Source: Squalus acanthias (taxonomy: Eukaryota). From it: DNA of 64,000 nucleotides. Below, piece by piece: positions 44,149-61,055 of the stretch; position 1 is the first letter of the stretch; every line of letters starts with the position of its first letter. Below the pieces are notes generated by a model. That model was not told where the DNA came from and made no database searches. It worked only from the letters and a program-made list of their open reading frames with translations. Where the stretch lies: contig CM059432.1 of the NCBI GenBank assembly GCA_030390025.1, forward strand, positions 33,730,001 through 33,794,000, written 5' to 3'. The position numbers and the translations under genes were made by a program.

Positions 44149-45820
44149 GGAGGGAAAATTCAGTACCTTAGCGCCTCCCATTAGCACCAGCAGCTGACGC
44201 TAATGGGGCAGTAATGCAGTAGCGCTATGGCAAGGCGAATACAGTGATGCTCGGCAAATCCGGACCCCCCATTGTGCCACTAGGACGAGGTACCACCGGG
44301 AACTTCAACGCCAGGCAGATCGTGACGTCAGTGAGCGTGCAATGCTCACTGGACGCCCGATCTGTGAAATTGATTGTCGCCACCAACTTAGTGCCTCGAT
44401 AGGGAGAACTGGTGTGAAGCAGGCGGAAGCCGGCTCCAGGGATGTTATTTAAAGGAATCATAAGTAATGAGTCGCAGCTGTCAGGTTAGTGCTGTTTTAT
44501 TGCTTTCTTGTCAGTTTGACATTGTGCAACAGTTTAATTCAGTAATTTAAAGGTTATTTTGTATCAGGAGTGTTGTGGTAACTAAAAAGTAGTTACATTA
44601 TTCTTAAAAAAAATCAAACCGCTACACTTGGTTACATTAATGGGGGCTGTACTGGCAGTTGACCTGGCCCTCCAGGATCTATGGCGGAGGGAGCGGAGGC
44701 AGCGAGAAAGATTGGAACATGTGGCCAGAGGAAGGAGGAGGACCATCAGGGCTCTCAACAGGAGGCCTTACCCTCCAAGGGTATTCCGACAGCACTTCTC
44801 CTACCTCCAATTAAGCGAGGAGCAGTGTATTAGAAGGCTCTGCTTCACCAAGGAGGTGGTCACAGAACTCTGCCATCTCCTGCAACCAGACCTCGAGCCT
44901 CAGATCAGGGCGACCACGGCTCTCCCAGTGGCAGTCAAGGTCACCGTCGCCCTCAGTTTTTTCGCCAGCAGATCCTTCTAGTCTGTAACAGAAGACATAG
45001 CTAACATCTCGCAGTTCGCCGTCCATCACAGCATCTGGGAGGTCACAGAGGCTCTCTATAGTAGGAGAAGGGACTACATTTCCTTCCCCATCACCAGAGA
45101 GAAGCTGGATGAGCGTGCATGTGGCTTTGCCAGGATAGTGGGATTCCCCAAGGTGCAGGGCGTCATTGACTGCATCCACGTGGCTTTGAGGGCAGCGCAT
45201 AACAATCCCGACATCTTCCGTAATCGCAAAGGCTACCACTCACTTAATGTACAGTTGGTGTGCGACCACAGACAGCGAATCCTCAATGTGAAAGCCCGCT
45301 ATCCTGGCAGCAGCCAAAATGCCTTCATCCTGTGCCAGCTTGAGGAGGACGAAGAACAGGAGCGAGAGAGGAGGCAGCCACTCAATCGGCCTTCCAGAAG
45401 GGTGGTCCGTGACCACCTCATCAGATTGCGGTTCCAATAAATTAAACCCCAGATCCTCATTGCTCACCACATCCCCATCATTCCATCCCTGTCACAGGCC
45501 ATATCACAGCACAAAGCTGAAATGAGACACACCACAAAAGAATCCAAACTGAATTAATAAATTTATCAATAATCAGTGAACACATATTTACAACAAAAAT
45601 ATTAACTATGCACCCTTGTGCAATCCCTTTGTGCATCTCGTTACTGTGCCTTTGTTTACTCTAGTGCTCCTACGAAGTGTTGGCCCAGTGGCGGCATCAG
45701 GTCTGGGTCACCATGGTCTCGCTGGGAGTCTACCATCCTTTGCAGACTGGAAATGATGGGCTCCATGGTGTGCGCAGAGCCTTGTGCAATGTTGGAGGCG
45801 GACTCCTCCACGCTCCTTAT
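44149..45820 (+). mobile_element. Internally deleted Harbinger with transposase pseudogene (44640-45440)
   Basis: Left TIR-like GGAGGGAAAATTC; RRPYPPRVFR..KEVVTELCHLLQPDL and GVIDCIHVAL..YPGSSQNAFIL paralogous to 5187-6350; GDKGY and the E motif are deleted. Confidence 0.85.
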
Positions 45821-48277: not shown

Positions 48278-48288
48278 TATGACTCTAT

Positions 48289-50856
48289 GGCCTCGATTTT
48301 GCCATTGGGGTCGGGCTGGGGTGTGTCAAGTGGTTTTCGTGTCAGGACCCCGACTCCGATGTGAAGTGGGAAAAAAGTGCGATTTTCCCATAATTGGGCA
48401 CTTGATTTCCAATGTGTGGGAACCCCTGGCCCAATTAGTCTTTCCATCCTGAAAGTCGCCTCCGATGACATCATCAGTGCTGCTGGATTTAAGGCCTGCA
48501 AGCAGCCTTGCTTCTTCTGGAGACTGGAAACGCTTTGGACATTGTATGAAGGACTTCATTTACCGACCATGTCCACCAGCAAGCAAAAGTGTGCACCTCG
48601 CTTTGATGAGCCCTCCCTCCAAGCTCTGGTGCAGGGAGCAAGATCTAATAAGGAGGTGCTCTTTCCTTCCTCAGGGAGAAAAAAGCCACCACAACAGACT
48701 AAAGCTGTGTGGCTGCAAGTGGCCCAGGAGGTCAATGCCATCTCTATGTGCTGCAGAACCTGGCTGCAGTGCAGGAAGAGTATTCATGACCTTTTCCTCA
48801 CAGGAAAAGTGAGTATGACTTTCTCATCACCCTCAATCTCATCCCCATCGCCTCTCCTCACCAGCACTCTGCTTTGCCAACCTCTTCCTCCACATCCCAC
48901 TTGACACTGACATCCCTGCACCCTTACCCATTCCCTCTCTCTCTATGGTCACATTCACTTAACTATTAGACCATGCAGCCCTCACACTCCCTATCACTGT
49001 GACGCAATGACAACAACTTACAACACACAGGGAGGGCCCTTTGTCTCCTTCTAAGCATCTATGCTGTGGATTCTCTACACTCACTCCTTCATTCTCACTC
49101 AAACTCCACTTGTGTCCCTCATTGCGGGAAAAGAGAGCCCACATTAAGAGGGAAAGAGTGCCGACATGAGGAGGGCCACCCTCAGTAGCCCAGCTCACCA
49201 CCTCGGAGGAGGTGGCCCTGGAAATTGCCGGGATCGAGGAGGATTCCCAAGTGGGGGACGGACAGGCGGGTGCATCACAGCAAGCTGGTGAAAGAATAGT
49301 TTGGCATCTCTCTCATTGACATTGCATGAGTGACTGATAATGATTCTGATGCTCTAACAGATTGACTTATGATCATCTGCATAATTCAATGTGCATGCAA
49401 CCTTTACCTCACATCTTTAACTCTTTCCTTTACTCCCCCACAGGACCATTGAGAGCCCCCGTCCCCACTGTCCAGGAGGAAGAGCCTGAGCTTCCAGACT
49501 CCTCAGAAGAAGCTGCAACCTCTGAGGGCGCTCCGTCAGCAGAATTAAGCGCACCCTGCACCAGCGCAGACACTCACACCTCGGTGGGACCTTCAGGACA
49601 TAGAGTAGAGTTGTCACCTGGTGTATCACAGCTCACAAGTGAGCATCAGCAGATCGTGGAGACAGGGACAGCAGTGGAGAGTCCTCGTCACAGTGGAGCG
49701 GTGCTGGAACTCCAGGAACAGGTGCAGTAGTCTCTAGCAGGTTTTGTCTCCAGGGTCGCTGCGAATGGAGGAGTCCATCGCTAACATGAGCAGAGCCTTT
49801 GTAGAGGCGTTGGTGCATGAACGCATCACCATGGAAAGGATGGCAACCTCCTTGGAAAGGATGGTTACCTCCATGGTAAGGCTGGCTACGGTAGTCACTT
49901 GGGTGTAATGTTGTGTTTAATTTTGAAAAGCCATCATTTGCTTATTGTCATAAAAAATTCTGATGGCAAACTGTTGCAGTTGTGGCGTGTGTCATTTCGC
50001 TAATGGGACTTCCACATTGAGGGCTTAGGGCGACTTGCAATTGTCAGTATGGTAGTCAGAGTGATAGGAATCCGCAGGTTCTTGGCCATTGTCGATGGTC
50101 AGATAAGAAGGTGCGAGGCAAAATTGTTTGATTGTGCAGGCTAAGCAAATCTGGCCAAGATGAGTGCGTCCCTTGCATCCCGGGCAGCAATGTGGTCGCG
50201 CACTGGCGCCTTCTGGCCTGTGCAGCTTCAGGTGGGTGAGCAGCAGCTTGGCGCTCCTGTTGTTGCTGCTGCTGTTGGTGGTGCTATTGTTCATGGTTCT
50301 GCTGCTGCCACGGCTGGTCTTCGTCCAGGAGGAAAGGAAATAAATGGTTCCCATGCGCTCAGTCAAGGTGGCGAGAGGGGTTTCCCAGGAGGTCACACTG
50401 GAGATGGGTGTCACGCTCCAAACTTCCACAACAATGGGTATGCCTGCTAAAAGTTCCCCCAGACCTGAGACAACAAAGTTCTGCCACCTGCAAATGATGA
50501 TTGCTGAAAACTCCTTTTTAATGGTGGAGCTGCAGCTGTTAGTAAGCAGTCCACTTGTGAGGCCGCCAGGATTCACTGGCGTGTTCCAGAGGAGACGTGT
50601 AGGACGTGGGAAAAGTGGTAAAATCAGAAAGGCCTCTCAAAATGGGATTATAGAGGCACTTAACTGGTAGTTAAGGGCCTTAAGGGCCTATCCCGCCTCT
50701 TGGAGATGGGATGGAAACGGGGTCAGAAAACACGCATTTGGGAAAATTGCTCGGAGGCGGGATGGAGGTGGGATCGGGCCCGCCCGCCATTTTTTGCGAT
50801 TTTACCACCTCACACGCCTCCAATCCCGCCTCCTCGGGCCTGGCAAAATCGAGCCC
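48289..50856. mobile_element. Internally deleted Harbinger element B (2568 bp), inverted relative to A
   Basis: TIRs GGCCTCGATTTTGCCA / TGGCAAAATCGAGCCC; TSD TAT (48286-48288, 50857-50859). Confidence 0.9.
48569..49890 (+). pseudogene. Myb/SANT-like gene of element B (spliced, disrupted)
   Basis: MSTSKQKCAPRFDEPSLQALVQG..WLQVAQEVNA..RTWLQCRKSIHDL; donor AAA|GTGAGT at 48808/48809; exon 2 EKRAHIKRER from ~49128; exon 3 after CCCCACAG at 49444. Confidence 0.75.
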
Positions 50857-50869
50857 TATGACTCTAAAG

Positions 50870-51501
50870 AATGCGTAGTGCCAGTAACTGTGCTGATGCC
50901 TGCGGGTGAGACATGTGATGTGTTCTTCCTCCTCCTGTTCTCCCGCCTCGCTCTCTACGGTGCCCTCAGAGACAGGCTGCTCAGGTGCTTGCTCATTATC
51001 TGAAAGCATAAAGGCACAAGAGTCGGGTTAAGGGGAGGGGAGGGGAGCAAGAAGGGAGAAATGCATGCATACGGCATTATTAGCTGGAAAGTGCGAAACA
51101 CTTGTGGGGTGAGGGGGAAGGGGGATGTGAGAAGAAGAAGTAGGGATGAACATACCGTTGTTGTTCCCAAGGGGGTCAACATCACCGGTGGCCACGGCAT
51201 TCACTACCTGGCGCCCAATAATCTGCTGCACTCTATTCTACAGCTCAGGCAGTGGTTGGGTTTCGGCTTGTCCCCTGCCTGTGCGCTCCGCTCATGACCG
51301 CAGTGCTGCCCGAGACGTGCTGCACTACTTCCCTCCATGTGGTGCGGAAGACTTGCAGCGACGGCCTCCTGCCACTTGCCGGGTAGAGCACTGCCCTCCG
51401 TCTCTCCACAGCGATCACCAACGCCTCAATGCTTGATCGCAGAATCTGCGGGCTCTCTCCCTGAGTAAGACCCGGGCGCCAAAATCTGTAAGACTAGGCC
51501 C
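50870..51501 (-). pseudogene. Harbinger Myb/SANT gene remnant and probable terminus
   Basis: Minus strand ARRFCDQA..AVERRRAVLYPASGRRP, QQIIGRQVVNAVATGDVD and an acidic exon 3 remnant, paralogous to 6589-8416. Confidence 0.6.
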
Positions 51502-51519
51502 TTTACAGTATTCCGGTCT

Positions 51520-52144
51520 GATCGTTACTTAGAGTTCGGACTTGAACCAGAATGAAGACAATGAGACAATATTCAGGGTAACTACTTCTTTACTTAAAAT
51601 CAGTCAAGTTTACAAGCAAGCATAAGCTTCAACGAGCAAGCATAAGCATACATACGTACCAACACCAGCGAGTGACCCGTTCAGCAGTGACTAGTAGGCC
51701 CTTCTTTCTGTGCGACCAGTTAAGTCATCCGACTCACTGCAGCAGTCCCAAGCGTTCCCTAACTGTTTCCTTTATACCAAAACTTGGCAGGCCTCCCAAT
51801 GCATACGCGTCCCAGACCACGTTGACGATTGTTCAATCATGGGTATCTCTTCTCCTAATCTGTAGTCAATGAGCCTCAAGGCCGCTTGCGCCATGTCTGA
51901 AGGGGTTGCAGAAGTTCCTCATTGTTCAATCAGCTTAAAGCTTTGTTTTGCAGAACTCTCGAGGTCCTGTCTGATGAGGTTGCAGAGGTTAACTAAATCT
52001 GTAGACAAAGGGCTGCTTATACCATGTCTAAAAGTGTTAGAGAAGTTAACTAAATCTGTTTAAAGGTTTGTTTGCAGAACTCTTGAAGCTTGCTGGTACA
52101 TTAAATTCAGCCAAGTCACAACGAACAGTGAATTATATCTTACA
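51520..52144 (-). repeat. 3' LTR
   Basis: Starts TGTAAG on the minus strand at 52144, right after PPT-like GAGGGTGGA; TATAAA (51771-51776), AGTAAA (~51588-51593), U3 direct repeats TTGCAGAA; outer edge uncertain (51487 or ~51520). Confidence 0.8.
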
Positions 52145-53099
52145 GGGTCCACCCTCAAGTGGCTGTGTGCCCGAACCTTCGGGTCACAATCACTTACGCT
52201 TCTTCGTTGTTTTCTTATACCCTTGTTTTCTGTCGCAACTTGACCAATCTTTGCTGCTTGTGTCATTGCTGGCGCGGCAAGTTATTATCAGCAGGTATAC
52301 CGCAATCACCAGCTGAACAACGACCAAGACATGGGAGATAATCCTTATCCATGGGTCGACCTCGATATCCCTACCGATATCCCACCAGGACGAGTCATCC
52401 CCAACCTTGGATATTTCTTTTCGTAATTCACGGTTCTCCTGAGCCAAGGTATAATAATGCTTCTGGGATTGATTGACTCGTCTCATTAATTCTGCCAAGT
52501 GTTCTTGCAGTGGTGGGATGTCAAAGCCGAACCGAGTCACATACTGGTGCAATTGCTCTTTTAGCTCATCCTCTACAGTAATATTCACTTGCTCATGCGA
52601 ATATATGCTTAACAGCACCCGTGCCCCAGGCCTAACAGGTCTGACTGGGATAAAGCAAAATGTTCCCGCCGCAATAGGACAGGTCAGGTTATCACTGTAC
52701 TGGTATTCCCGGTGAATAGTGGTGACACACTATTCACCTTTCCCTCGGTAAGCTGACCTTATCGGGGAGTGCCATCCCGGAGTAACTTTCATGGTACAAT
52801 TCCATTCTATCCTATCCCAAGTGAACCCACAAGCGGGGGCTACGTGCTCTGCCACATCGTAAGGACAGACGAACGTATCTTGTATCTGAGCACATCCGGT
52901 GAGATCTAGGGCCACCCATTTGGTCCTGTCCACCTGGGCCACATACTTCGGAGGCTCGTCATACTCGACCAAATGGCCACCTCGACGCACCCCTACGTTC
53001 TCCATGCGAAACAAGGGGCTTGGGGTCGTTTTCTCGGGCAGGACCAGATAATACAGCACAATCCCTAAAAGGGTGAAGTTTCTCTGCCTTTGTAAGTCA

Positions 53100-53570
53100 C
53101 GATGTGGAGATGCCGGCGTTGGACTGGGGTGGACAAAAATGAGAAGTCACACAACACCAGGTTATAGTCCAACAGATTTATTTAAAATTACAAGCTTTCG
53201 GAGCTATCGCTCCTTCCTCAGGTAGAGTTACTGTGAGACAATCTACCAGAATTCACAGAATATAAACACAGAGAAAATGCAGAGATTCAATCTATCCCTA
53301 CATCAAAGACATACTAAGAGCACAGCCAAGACAATGAGATGTGTCCCAGGGGGTCCAACGTGTCAAAACACCTGCTGGCTGCATATCCTCTCCATTTGGG
53401 TTTGTTTCTTGTGTTTGTTTCTTGTGTTTGTTTTTTTAAAAAGCTGGAAAGACCGGCCATGATGTCAAGTCACGTTCTGTAGCGTGACATGAACCCGATA
53501 TCCCGATTGAGGCCGTCCTCATGAGTGCGGAACTTGGCTATCAGTTTCTGCTCGATGATTTTGCAAGTCG
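53100..53570 (-). mobile_element. Penelope-like element fragment within env
   Basis: EQKLIAKFRTHEDGLNRDIGFMSRY resembles a GIY-YIG C-terminus; pLTR segment with hammerhead motif and AATAAA. Confidence 0.7.
53189..53224 (-). ncRNA. Minimal type I hammerhead ribozyme motif
   Basis: Minus strand TAC-CTGAGGA-A-GGAGC-GATA-GCTCC-GAAA-GC-TT-GTA: stem I TAC/GTA, stem II GGAGC/GCTCC, palindrome AAGCTT. Confidence 0.65.
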
Positions 53571-54169
53571 GTGATTCGGACCTAAAACTGTCCCAATTCT
53601 TCATTGGGCCTGGCCGAGGATTCACACATCCATATATCCCCTCGTGTTCTCGCCACCGCCGTGGCCAGCACAACATAGTTTCTCCCTCGCCTTCCGATTG
53701 AGTTGGGCTTCCTAGATTTCCCCAGGGGTCCCCTATCTGGCGGTAACTGGTTTAATCACCCGTTTTCGCTTGGATGAACCACACATGTGGTTGGCTGGTG
53801 GTGCCATTTCTACACTTTATGCATACTCCTCTTCCCTCCCAGACCTCGCACGTGGTCACCCACACTGTCCCCGAGCAATTCGTTTCGCACGTACCTGAGA
53901 TGGATCAGAGAGCGACTTCCCGTGCGGTACCTTGGGGCACAGCTGCCGGGACAAGGGTGATCTAGCTTTATATCCTGAACCTCTGGACCCTCTACATGTT
54001 ATCCTCACTGCCGCCATCCCTATGCTGAGTATTACGCCGCACAACAACCAAAATAGTTTCCCCATTTCCCTTTTTGCCTTGGTCGGGCCTGTGAGAGAAG
54101 GGAACAAAAACGGAGTGTTACTTCTGGCCATGTACCCCCCTTCACCCCACCTACTGGCCTCTCAGACCT

Positions 54170-55560: not shown

Positions 55561-56165
55561 CTATAATGTTTTAAGGTCTGGGGGAAGGGGAACGGTAACG
55601 GGTGCTGGGGTGACTGCTGCCACCATTCCTGATTGGTATAGGTCCCACGGGACTCCCTTCTCCGCCCCTTCCCTAGCCAGTTTGTCCGACCTTCTATTTC
55701 CTTCCCATCTGGGCTCTACTTTAGAGTGGGCCTTCACCTTATGGATACAGTATTCTTCACCTACGCTTTCCACGGCCTCCATTATGGTTGCCAGCATCGG
55801 GGCGGTTACTAATGGTCTACCATCCGCTGACTTAAAACCCCTCCTGGACCAGATGGCCAGGTACTCCGTGCAAGAGTTACATGTAAACATATGGGCTGGA
55901 TTTTGTCTTGGGGTCGGGTTGGGATCGTGTTACCCGCATTTCGTGTTGCCCCCCCGACTCCAGATTAATGTGGATGAATGATGCAATTTTGACTTAATTG
56001 GGCAATTGAGTTCCAGCATGTGGGAACCCATGAACCAATTAGTAGTTTCAGTCTGAAAGTCGCCTCTGATGATGTCATCATTGCAGCTCAGAGACTGCCT
56101 GTTTGGTCTCAGAGATTGCCTGGCCTTTGCTGTGAGAGGACCTGGATGCAAAATGAGCAGCATCT

Positions 56166-56201
<36 letters not shown>

Positions 56202-56890
56202 GAGAATTTTTTTTGCAACCAAGTCCTCCCAGGCAGTCTCTGAAGACATTCAATGCAGCAGCATCAGAGGTGACTTTCAGACCTAATACTACTACTACCT
56301 TCATCACAATACTACTACTACCTTCATCACATCTCCGTTGTAATAGTGGACCTGCAGCTGATAGTCAGCTATCCACTTGTGCTCCCGCCAGGTTTCACTG
56401 GCGTGTTTCACATCAGGCGTACTTCACACGTCGGAAAAGGGTTAAACTAGCTAAAACGTTTCAAAATGGCATTACAGAGCCAATTTAGGGCTTGTTAAGG
56501 GCTTTAATGGCCTCTCCCGCCTCTTGGAGGCGGGACGGAGTCGGGAACCCCGCGACCGATTTTGTCAAAATTGCGTGGAGGCGGAATGGAGTCAGGATGG
56601 GGTCGGGACCCCCGAATCTGCAACTTTAACCCCCCACACGCCTCCAAACCCGACTCTACGGGTCATTGAAAATCCAGCCCATAGCGTCTGAGCAGATCGT
56701 ATAGGGCGGGGGAAACTCTGTAGGGTGTGGTACCACGTATGTTATGGCTGCTAATTCCGCCTGTTGGGCGCTAAGGGTGGTGGGCAGTGAAATTGCCAAT
56801 TCCACTCCCTTCTGTGGGTCATAAATTCCACACCCTGTTTTGCATTCCCCTTTCTCTACAAAACTGGATCCATCCACATATATGTCGCGC
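55561..56890 (-). pseudogene. pol: RNase H domain split by a MITE
   Basis: IYVDGSS, SAQQAELAAI, YTICSD | WSRRGFKSADGRP, HKVKAHS, GNRRSDKLAREGA. Confidence 0.9.
55893..56680. mobile_element. Non-autonomous Harbinger element inserted in RNase H
   Basis: TIRs GGGCTGGATTTT / AAAATCCAGCCC; flanks ATAT and ATA; same family as 22506-23143. Confidence 0.9.
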
Positions 56891-58837: not shown

Positions 58838-59565
58838 CTAGGGTGTCTCATCCCGCAACTCCCTCAGACACTCCTTCATACATTTGGTAAATAGTTTGGT
58901 CACATCCTCTTGGGTGGGGGCACTTGGTCGAGGTCCCGTTGTCTTTGGGCCCTCTGACTTCCCCTTTCTCAGGAGTCTACAGGAGCATGCAAAATGTCCT
59001 ATGCCTCCACCGTTATAGCACTCTCGCCCCTGGGTTCCTCCTTTCGTTGCCGCCCCCTCTTGTTGCCACCTTCGGGGTGATCCAGCACCGGGTCCCTCAC
59101 CCTTAATTTCACAGACCTTGCCCTTTGGTTTATTTATCAGCCCGGTGTTCTTTTTATCCACCTGCCGTGCTTCGAAGCACAGAGTCATTTTCCGCAATAC
59201 CCTGGCCTCAGTATTGGTATTATCCTCTGGGTCAAAATCCGCCAGAGCGGCTTGCAAATAGGGCAGGCTGTGGGAGATCAGGGTGCGCAACCAGTGATTA
59301 CGCGGCTACCCGTCCAGCCCTCCGCTATCTATTGTTATTCTGCATTATAAGTCGGCCATAATCTATCGGCGAACACTGCCGACAACTCGCACCAACCTTT
59401 GTGTTACTTCCGCCAAAGCCTGGAAAGGGTCTCCCTTTCCCTGCCGCATAGCCTGGATGCTTCTTAACTTTAGCGTGTCATAATTACCCTCTCCTCTTTT
59501 GACTTCCTGTGGGAGACCAGTGAAAACGCCAGGACTCAAAGTAAATAGCAGTAAGCGCTTCCTTT
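58838..59565 (-). pseudogene. gag: gag C-terminal part
   Basis: Degenerate zinc knuckle ECYNGGGIGHFACSC upstream of the protease; 5' part replaced by CR1. Confidence 0.7.
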
Positions 59566-60590
59566 CATAAGAACATAAGAACATAAGAAATAGGAGCAGG
59601 AGTAGGCCATTTGACCTCTCGAGCCTGCTCTGCCATTAAATAAGATCATGGCTGATCTTCTACCTCATCTCCACTTTCTTGAACTATCCCCATATCCCTT
59701 GATTCCCTTAATATTCAAAAATCTATCAATCTCTGTCTTGAATATACTCAATGACTGAGCCTCCACAGCCCTTTGGGGAAGTGAATTCGAAAGATTCACC
59801 ACCCTCTGAGTGAAGAAATTTCTCTTCATCTCAGTCCTAAATGGCCGACCCCTTATTCTGAGACTGTGACCCCTGGTTCTAGACTCCCCAGCCAGGGGAA
59901 ACATCCTCCCTGCATCTACCCTGTCAAGCCCTGTTAGAATTGTTGTATGTTTCAATGAGATCACCTCTCATTCTTTTAAACTCTAGAGAATATAGGCCTA
60001 TTCTACTCAATCTGTCCTCAGAGGACAATCCCCCCATCCCAGGAATCAGTCTGGTGAATCTTCGTTGCACTCCCTCTATGGCAAGTCTATCCTTCCTTAG
60101 GTAAGGAGACCAAAACTGTACACAATACTCCAGGTGTGGTCTCACCAGGGTCCTATATAATTGCAGTAAGACGTCCTTACTCTTATACTCAAATCCTCTT
60201 GTAATAAATGCCAACATACCATTTGCTTTCCTAATTGCTTGCTGTACCTGCATATTAACTTTCAATGATTCGTGTACAAGGACACCCAGGTCCCTCTGAA
60301 CACCAACATTTCCCAATCTCTCACCATTTAAAAAATACTCTGCTTTTCTATTTTTCCTACCAAAGTGGATAACTTCACATTTCTCCACATTATATTCCAT
60401 TTGCCATGTTCTTGCCCACTCACTTAGCCTGTCTATGTCCTCTTTGCATCCTCCTCACAACTTACATTCCCACTTGGATATATTACATTTGGTCCCCTCA
60501 TCCAAATCATTGCTGTAGATTGTGAATAGCTGAGGCCCAAACACTGATCCTTGCAGTACCCCACTAGTTACAACCTGCCAACCCGTAAAT
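59566..60590 (-). mobile_element. CR1 3' portion inserted in gag
   Basis: ORFs 59924-60400 and 59665-59964; (CATAAGAA)n tail. Confidence 0.9.
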
Positions 60591-60607
60591 GACCTCATCC
60601 AGGCCAT

Positions 60608-60828
60608 TTTTCTCTCTCTCTCTCTCTGTCTCTCTCTCCCCCTTCGATTCCCTCTCTCTCTCTATCTCTCTTTCCCCCTCCGATTCCCCCCTCTCTCTCT
60701 GTCTCTCCCTTCGCTTCTCTCTCTATATATGTATCTCTCTCTCCCCCCCCTCCAATTCTCTCTCTCTCTGTCTCTCTCTCTCCCCCTCTGATTCCCTCTC
60801 TCTGTCTCTCACTCCCCCTCCGATTCCG
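60608..60828. repeat. CT-rich simple repeat with CC(C/T)TCCGATTCC-like units
   Basis: Directly visible in the sequence. Confidence 0.85.
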
Positions 60829-60909
60829 ATGGAGAGAGTTCCCGATTTCCACTACTTTTTGTGTGAAGAAGTGCTTCCTGACATCAACCTAGAATGGCCT
60901 CGCCCTAAC

Positions 60910-61055
60910 GTTAACAATTGTTCAATCATGGGTATCTCTTCTCCTCATCTGTAGTCAATGGGCCTCAAGGCCGCTTGCGCCATGTCTGAAGGGGTTGCAG
61001 AAGTTCCTCATTATTCAATCAGCTTAAAGGTTTGTTTTGCAGAACTCTCGAGGTC
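60910..61055 (-). repeat. Fragment of the putative 5' LTR
   Basis: 146-bp direct repeat of 51821-51966 with 6 mismatches counted by eye. Confidence 0.85.

Follow-up and report, generated by a model that had tools for sequence, protein, structure and literature searches.

Which retroviral lineage left behind the broken env gene that lies on the minus strand of a Squalus acanthias contig, and what kind of fusion protein belongs to it? The question arises within a window, by which we mean the whole 64,000-nt stretch analysed here (assembly GCA_030390025.1, contig CM059432.1, positions 33,730,001-33,794,000 of the forward strand). A first-pass annotation of this DNA had noted an envelope remnant that looked unlike the gamma-type Env, and had gone on to propose from its F-like layout a lineage akin to the lokiretroviruses in a probable cartilaginous fish. 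Our analysis upholds much of the former and leads elsewhere on the latter. The locus is a decayed provirus copy of a multi-copy family, with the following features (positions are those of the window, listed from the 5′ to the 3′ end of the provirus).

60908..61055, minus strand: an LTR piece of 148 bp, probably what is left of the 5′ LTR, with 6 differences from the 3′ LTR
59567..60907, minus strand: LINE pieces, which we take from their motifs to be of CR1 type, and a microsatellite, together replacing the leader, the primer site and the 5′ part of gag
58838..59566, minus strand: 3′ remnant of gag, its single zinc knuckle decayed, 58% identical to the gag frame of copy L043
54236..58735, minus strand: pol remnant comprising protease, RT, tether, RNase H and integrase (Pfam RVT_1, RNase_H, rve and Integrase_H2C2)
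55891..56679, no strand assigned: a repeat insertion of about 790 bp splitting RNase H, seen as a gap against other copies and with copies of 70-81% identity elsewhere in the window
53624..54065, minus strand: env N-terminal remnant with its ATG at 54065, a signal peptide, a broken start of the surface subunit and an Ig-like 'EGIYGC' motif
53565..53623, no strand assigned: a 59-nt stretch between the env start and the Penelope piece, matched in the loci compared only by the window itself
53101..53564, minus strand: 3′ fragment of a Penelope-type retroelement inside env, 94.9% identical over 466 nt to L079:2199-2658
52190..53100, minus strand: env C-terminal remnant with Cys-rich F1-like domains, a linker, a heptad repeat, an anchor and a basic tail, from reading of the frame
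about 52510-52403 and about 52339-52283, minus strand: the env heptad repeat and the anchor, respectively
51487..52144, minus strand: 3′ LTR of 658 bp (TGTAAGA...TCTTACA) with a purine-rich tract ahead of it; similar LTRs flank other copies

The C-terminal env remnant is a 302-codon frame (minus strand, 53098-52193) with a single in-frame TAG at 52732-52730, the one stop noted earlier, and the cysteine-rich motifs, linker, heptad repeat and transmembrane helix quoted in the first-pass annotation are all found in this frame. The anchor likewise stands, the best 19-residue hydrophobic window (mean hydropathy 2.7) beginning at residue 254; the stretch ahead of it, formerly put at about 270 residues, measures about 250. 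The remnant is 74% identical to residues 307-586 of P0002, the natural frame of a sister copy. Its N-terminal counterpart, with a pyrimidine tract and a CAG acceptor 24 nt upstream of the ATG, is 70-77% identical at the nucleotide level to three other copies as far as 53624-53625. Between the two parts lie 523 nt in the window, against 1.0-1.05 kb in two copies and an interrupted stretch in one, and in sister copies the segment that is missing here carries the furin site and the fusion peptide. The proposal that a Penelope fragment had taken their place proved correct: the matching genome element, L079, has a frame with an RT match, and from this and a GIY-YIG-like motif we assign the 'Penelope' label to 53564-53101. 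The window env has been broken both by the insertion of Penelope sequence and by the loss of about 1 kb. Since the furin site, fusion peptide and HR1 are missing and the remaining frame has an in-frame stop, it is dead, and this copy cannot make a working Env.

The absence of gamma-type signatures reported in the first pass extends well beyond the window: neither an ISD-like (immunosuppressive domain) pattern nor CX6CC is present in the window frame, in three natural sister-copy frames or in the full-length Env of the sister family described below. The one exception among the 11 proteins scanned is a frog homologue, where a CX6CC pattern falls within the anchor region. In gamma-type Env an ISD is followed by CX6CC ahead of the anchor (PMC9967133); the earlier statement that epsilon-type Env shares both is mistaken, as exogenous epsilonretroviruses carry neither according to the same source.

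The remainder of the provirus is likewise decayed. Its pol has 10 in-frame stops over 8 aligned segments, and the gag remnant terminates in a TAG that is in frame with the start of pol. The 3′ LTR has 7-bp inverted ends. If the 148-bp piece is the true 5′ LTR, its 4% divergence would translate to roughly 9 to 90 million years at the two rates used in PMC7947760 and PMC4422223. Immediately past the 3′ LTR there are 14 bases (51486-51473, minus strand) similar to the beginning of the primer-binding site found after the 5′ LTR of copy L089; they could be either a tandem-provirus junction or part of a repeat at the insertion site. The 64-kb window has no tRNA genes. It does hold a broken transposase (44586-45440, plus strand), presumably of Harbinger/PIF type on the strength of its motifs, with related non-coding repeats at 48286-48484, at 50511-50856 and inside pol at 55891-56679.

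Elsewhere in the genome the C-terminal env piece has at least 150 matches, most of them with stops. All 150 that were scored, out of 9240 candidates, have E below 1e-42 and hence are not chance matches. Further, at five places the env and RT queries match within 3.7 to 5.2 kb of each other, implying that env and pol travel together. A younger sister family (L070-L074, L036, flanks L081-L086), whose RT shares about 75% identity with the window piece, carries LTRs of about 1.65 kb; in all six pairs compared these are 99.2-99.9% identical. It also has long open pol frames. Here the intact env that the first-pass annotation had proposed to seek in other copies is indeed found: 4 of the 11 stretches of this family examined have an env frame that runs uninterrupted from its ATG for about 783 residues.

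The sister-family Env begins with about 220 residues ahead of the F2-like segment, a part that includes a DEGIYVC motif. Pfam Ig_3 (E 0.013) and the ESM Atlas (0.80-0.81) both point to an Ig fold in this part, and there are hints in homologues, namely a shark protein named 'Ig-like domain-containing' and a V-set match at E 0.045 in another; a single-sequence model of the N-terminus (pLDDT 34.5) was unusable, with fold matches of Z up to 7.0 to assorted beta-sandwiches. Taken together, the signs of an Ig-like domain are weak but consistent. Some lokiretroviruses have an smc-like gene ahead of gag; in the window the 5′ part of gag is lost, and the Gag of a sister copy has a coiled-coil-like N-terminus, with no match in Pfam and none by BLAST to two lokiretroviral N-termini, and sister copies have one zinc knuckle (Pfam E 0.04-0.05). 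A search for expression listed no RNA run. Fourteen sequencing runs contain over half the words of the sister-family env, eight of them guessed to be RNA, and contigs assembled from sequencing runs span its pol and env. One contig, from one of four runs, connects a GT donor lying within the LTR with an AG acceptor that stands 14 nt ahead of the sister env ATG (L093:521 to 7559); with a short side of 21 letters and a run not recorded as RNA, this is a hint, not evidence. The primer-binding sites differ between the older (L089) and the younger (L084/L085) families, and we take them to be Lys-like and Arg-like, respectively.

What, then, is the fold of this Env? The sister copy P0002 is a natural 586-residue frame in which RRRR precedes a hydrophobic peptide and then a long heptad repeat, and it served for the structure prediction and Foldseek search that had been suggested for the window frame. 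The AlphaFold model, a monomer built from 41 natural sequences (pLDDT 70.8, pTM 0.58, with 132 residues under pLDDT 50), retrieves paramyxo- and pneumovirus F at E 9e-12, all 36 of the rows listed being F proteins; the TM-scores of the monomer model to F are low, at 0.28-0.37 in this search and 0.28-0.44 overall. With VIA-align, the model matches PIV5 F at Z 11.1 (rmsd 6.5, 335 aligned) and foamy Env at Z 10.0 (rmsd 5.1, 288 aligned); every one of the 16 rows exceeding Z 6 is an F protein or a foamy Env, while unrelated proteins begin at Z 5.1. In the ESM Atlas a Fusion_gly cluster comes first (0.93, 205 features), with a low recognition value. These three lines bear out the earlier view of a layout that is not gamma-type and resembles F1. 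A fold search of a viral library, in which the top match is nameless, likewise returned F proteins, arthropod-virus glycoproteins and baculovirus F, and with them three retroviral Envs, those of WEHV1 at E 1.6e-11, WDSV at 6e-7 and feline foamy virus at 1.5e-4, which suggests that the walleye epsilonretroviruses WEHV1 and WDSV may have an F-type Env too. Furin site, fusion peptide, HR1, domains I-III, HR2 and anchor are all present in sister copies, the domains being taken from the model. Thus, the Env of the family is predicted to be a fusion protein of the paramyxovirus-F type (class Ib).

Pfam and PDB sequence searches with single proteins gave no envelope family, PF00523 included, for P0001-P0004 or P0186, and a word-index homologue search with P0002 gave no match. 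Run against the genome, PF00523 had no match, and no positive control responded either. A representative homologue search returned 44 proteins at E up to 0.001, a few of them chimeric or unrelated; the 16 Env homologues looked up comprise 10 from sharks or rays, 3 from frogs and 3 without an organism name. Profile A2 retrieved 9 proteins, of which the 6 named are all from sharks or rays. Many sharks, rays and frogs carry relatives. Among 46 proteins, the single-protein searches gave one weak Baculo_F match (E 0.0011) and one GP41 (0.041). The P0041 cluster, with 16 members from the frog Mantella aurantiaca that are mostly 677-residue Env homologues, is a young multi-copy frog family with the same kind of Env.

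The lineage of the provirus is a separate matter, for which we turned to Pol. The reference rows of our RT trees (one SnRV, four lokiretroviruses, class I and ERV-L-like elements) were labelled by eye from motifs in the supplement of PMC7947760; the foamy-type row, a single long branch, was taken from the same shark genome, and the trees were built without Odin, lentivirus, MLV or exogenous foamy rows. In a 52-row tree, for which 45 homologues were chosen from 120 listed and joined by the window piece and 6 frames from the genome, the family forms a clade (100/100) inside the retroviruses (100/99), with the lokiretroviruses outside as their sister. A 28-row mixture-model tree agrees, with the family again inside the retroviruses (100/99) and the lokiretroviruses a separate sister clade. 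The AU test rejects a union of the family with lokiretroviruses (p 0.034 and 0.0002), with class I (p 0.0009) and with foamy viruses (p 0.026, on the one long-branch row). The family lies apart from the class I, foamy and ERV-L rows; its node with SnRV is unsupported, at 44-57% bootstrap, and the backbone inside the retroviruses is a polytomy. The family RT is 50-55% identical to coelacanth and frog elements, its nearest relatives, ahead of SnRV at 45%, lokiretroviruses at 37-39% and the foamy-type RT of the genome at 33-35%; it shares the motif LPQGF with SnRV, where lokiretroviruses have PFGY/L. The homologues of a sister Pol include frog, coelacanth and turtle elements annotated 'NYNRIN-like'. 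Four long open Pol relatives (P0091, P0096, P0099 and P0105), two of them from birds, lack the catalytic YxDD and are possibly OVEX1-like co-opted genes of the same broad group.

Could the locus nonetheless be a lokiretrovirus, the first in a cartilaginous fish? Its F-like Env, a motif chain that by eye is that of the Loki-Str Env and a dual RNase H (tether plus RNase H, seen in the window as Pfam RNase_H and tether similarity) would all fit, the last being common to all retroviruses. The family tether (up to 40% identity to lokiretroviruses, against 25% to SnRV) and integrase (36-39% against 32%) are closer to the lokiretroviral versions as well. The earlier remark that no cartilaginous fish had been reported as a host also agrees with the original screen, in whose supplement 0 of 6 chondrichthyan genomes are positive (PMC7947760). 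However, lokiretroviruses are defined by an RT clade that is sister to all other retroviruses. As the RT of the family lies inside the true retroviruses, with the lokiretroviruses as sister outside, and as an F-like Env is no lokiretroviral marker, the loki reading fails, and we regard it as very improbable. Further, when the genome was queried with lokiretroviral Pol, the best matches reached 34-41% and those examined all belonged to the family group (29 of 25526 candidates scored, after a strict first pass). The family also differs from Loki-Str in the stop that splits gag from pol and in the extra Env residues before the F2-like part. Scans of viral contigs with the family RT and with lokiretroviral Pol gave no match. 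A related proposition is that the family represents a separate deep lineage, not particularly close to SnRV, together with its 'NYNRIN-like' kin of frog, coelacanth and turtle, the loki-like tether, integrase and Env being either ancestral or swapped. The RT polytomy and the nearness of frog and coelacanth elements, rather than SnRV, speak for it, as do the tether and integrase similarities, a weak split (55/88) in the integrase tree that sets SnRV, class I and ERV-L apart, and the reported proximity of the lokiretroviral integrase to CGIN1 (PMC7947760). Yet no supported node joins the integrases of the family and the lokiretroviruses in that tree (38 of its 41 rows used, without CGIN1), the backbone of which is unsupported; moreover, clade Huo is already broad, covering class III ERVs of all vertebrate groups in the account of PMC6001957, such that the distinction may be one of naming. 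We consider this reading unlikely, though deserving of some weight.

A cartilaginous-fish foamy virus has to be weighed as well, all the more as the first-pass annotation had held that a best profile match to foamy Env or TLV_coat would tell against its own reading. Profile A1 does find foamy Env as the best solved structure (E 1.5e-4), in keeping with the structural Z of 10.0, and both A1 and A2 score the foamy-type env of the same genome at 20-21 bits (shuffles at most 5.1). On the other side, profile A2 does not recover foamy Env among solved structures at E up to 1. PF03408 (positive control E 9.5e-22) finds not the family but 11 other matches over the cut-off (L052-L059, L075, L077 and L079), which are foamy-type ERV remnants separate from it. 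The RT distance and the rejected pairing given above also run counter to it, and a gag-stop-pol layout is not a foamy trait. Nor is the zinc knuckle, according to PMC2717909. There is hardly any chance, in our estimation, that the family is foamy. We hold instead, with good confidence, that the locus is a dead provirus of a true-retrovirus family, likely related to SnRV (class III, 'Huo'), with an Env that is predicted to be F-type (class Ib).

Briefly, for a virus of such a family we would envisage the following course. Readthrough of the gag stop would yield Pol, and env would be expressed from a spliced RNA using the acceptor just ahead of its ATG. The Env would then be cleaved by furin at R-x-x/R-R, a motif that is seen in sister copies. 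The freed hydrophobic peptide would insert, and fold-back of HR1 and HR2 would fuse the membranes, as in F and foamy Env (PMC11468914). The extra N-terminal part, with its likely Ig-like domain, would probably serve in receptor binding, because the copies examined showed no separate attachment gene.

As a locus, this is an ordinary dead copy, and the evidence does not support lokiretroviruses in sharks. Its wider interest lies in the fact that an F-like Env is seen in lokiretroviruses, foamy viruses, SnRV-type viruses and, by fold search, walleye epsilonretroviruses, and that the F-type Env of the SnRV-related shark ERV group has no family model. Wang and Han favoured the view that lokiretroviruses and true retroviruses had gained env independently, since the Envs of the two groups seemed unrelated (PMC9040795). 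Since then, foamy Env has been shown to have the F fold (PMC11468914). The presence of such an Env, alignable to SnRV Env, in a third branch within the orthoretrovirus-like part of the tree, together with the walleye fold matches, shifts the weight towards a single ancestral F-type env. We would give an even chance to the hypothesis that the F-type Env is the ancestral retroviral fusogen, which gamma- and beta-type Envs replaced later. If this were true: (i) the F-type Env would persist in lokiretroviruses, foamy viruses, SnRV with the shark and frog ERV group, and the walleye epsilonretroviruses; (ii) each lineage would have a different receptor-binding add-on, here likely an Ig-like domain before F2; (iii) the present family would form a bridge lineage, its RT being retroviral and its tether and integrase loki-like. 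The idea can be tested directly on those young copies that have open env frames. On the practical side, screens with gamma- and beta-type queries alone, such as the anamniote Env survey, miss an Env class that is widespread in sharks, rays and frogs. In the literature searched, with most subscription papers outside its reach, we found no statement that the Env of the SnRV clade or of the walleye viruses is F-like.

Among known systems, a first comparison is with SnRV, whose genes we took from a 10,688-nt viral contig that matches the SnRV row at 99% identity and has the SnRV length stated in PMC12193657. Against profile A1 its Env aligns with hhalign at 93.5% probability (E 2.4e-7, 275 columns), from the pre-furin segment across the furin site and the Cys positions through the Cys-rich region, and it scores 8-9 bits against the family profiles, with 100 shuffles reaching at most 1.9; pairwise BLAST of the family Env against it is not significant. 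These profile comparisons argue that the two Envs are homologous. Both also have gag, a stop and pol in one frame and one zinc knuckle. They differ in that the SnRV Env has about 1,100 residues and the family Env about 780 with a short tail, that the Gags have little similarity outside the zinc knuckle, and that the tether and integrase of SnRV are not close to those of the family. SnRV also has accessory ORFs and a complex splicing pattern. SnRV-related ERVs are known in elephant shark as CmiERV lineage I (PMC4422223), and 'Spuma' ERVs have been reported from catshark (PMC10699275). Lokiretroviruses (PMC7947760, PMC9040795) share with the family an Env of the F type (in which a signal peptide, a furin site, a fusion peptide, coiled coils and an anchor are present), the dual RNase H and a similar tether and integrase; in Loki-Str gag-pol is one open frame and the F2-like part of Env comes right after the signal peptide, whereas the family has about 220 residues first. 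Foamy Env (PMC11468914; PDB 8OZH, 8RM0, 8RM1) is comparable in the F-fold domains I-III and in the Cys pattern of the C-terminal ectodomain. Its receptor-binding domain, however, is inserted just upstream of the furin site, unlike the extra part of the family Env, which is N-terminal to the F2-like segment; the ordinary signal peptide of the family Env, its Gag and its RT set the family apart too. The walleye virus Envs are described in PMC9967133 only as distinct from the gamma-type. Finally, paramyxo- and pneumovirus F proteins resemble the family Env in predicted fold and in the succession of parts, which runs from F2 through the cleavage site, the fusion peptide and HR1 to the Cys-rich domains, HR2 and the anchor, while sharing 8-14% identity with it; the family adds to this common plan an extra N-terminal part and a retroviral carrier.
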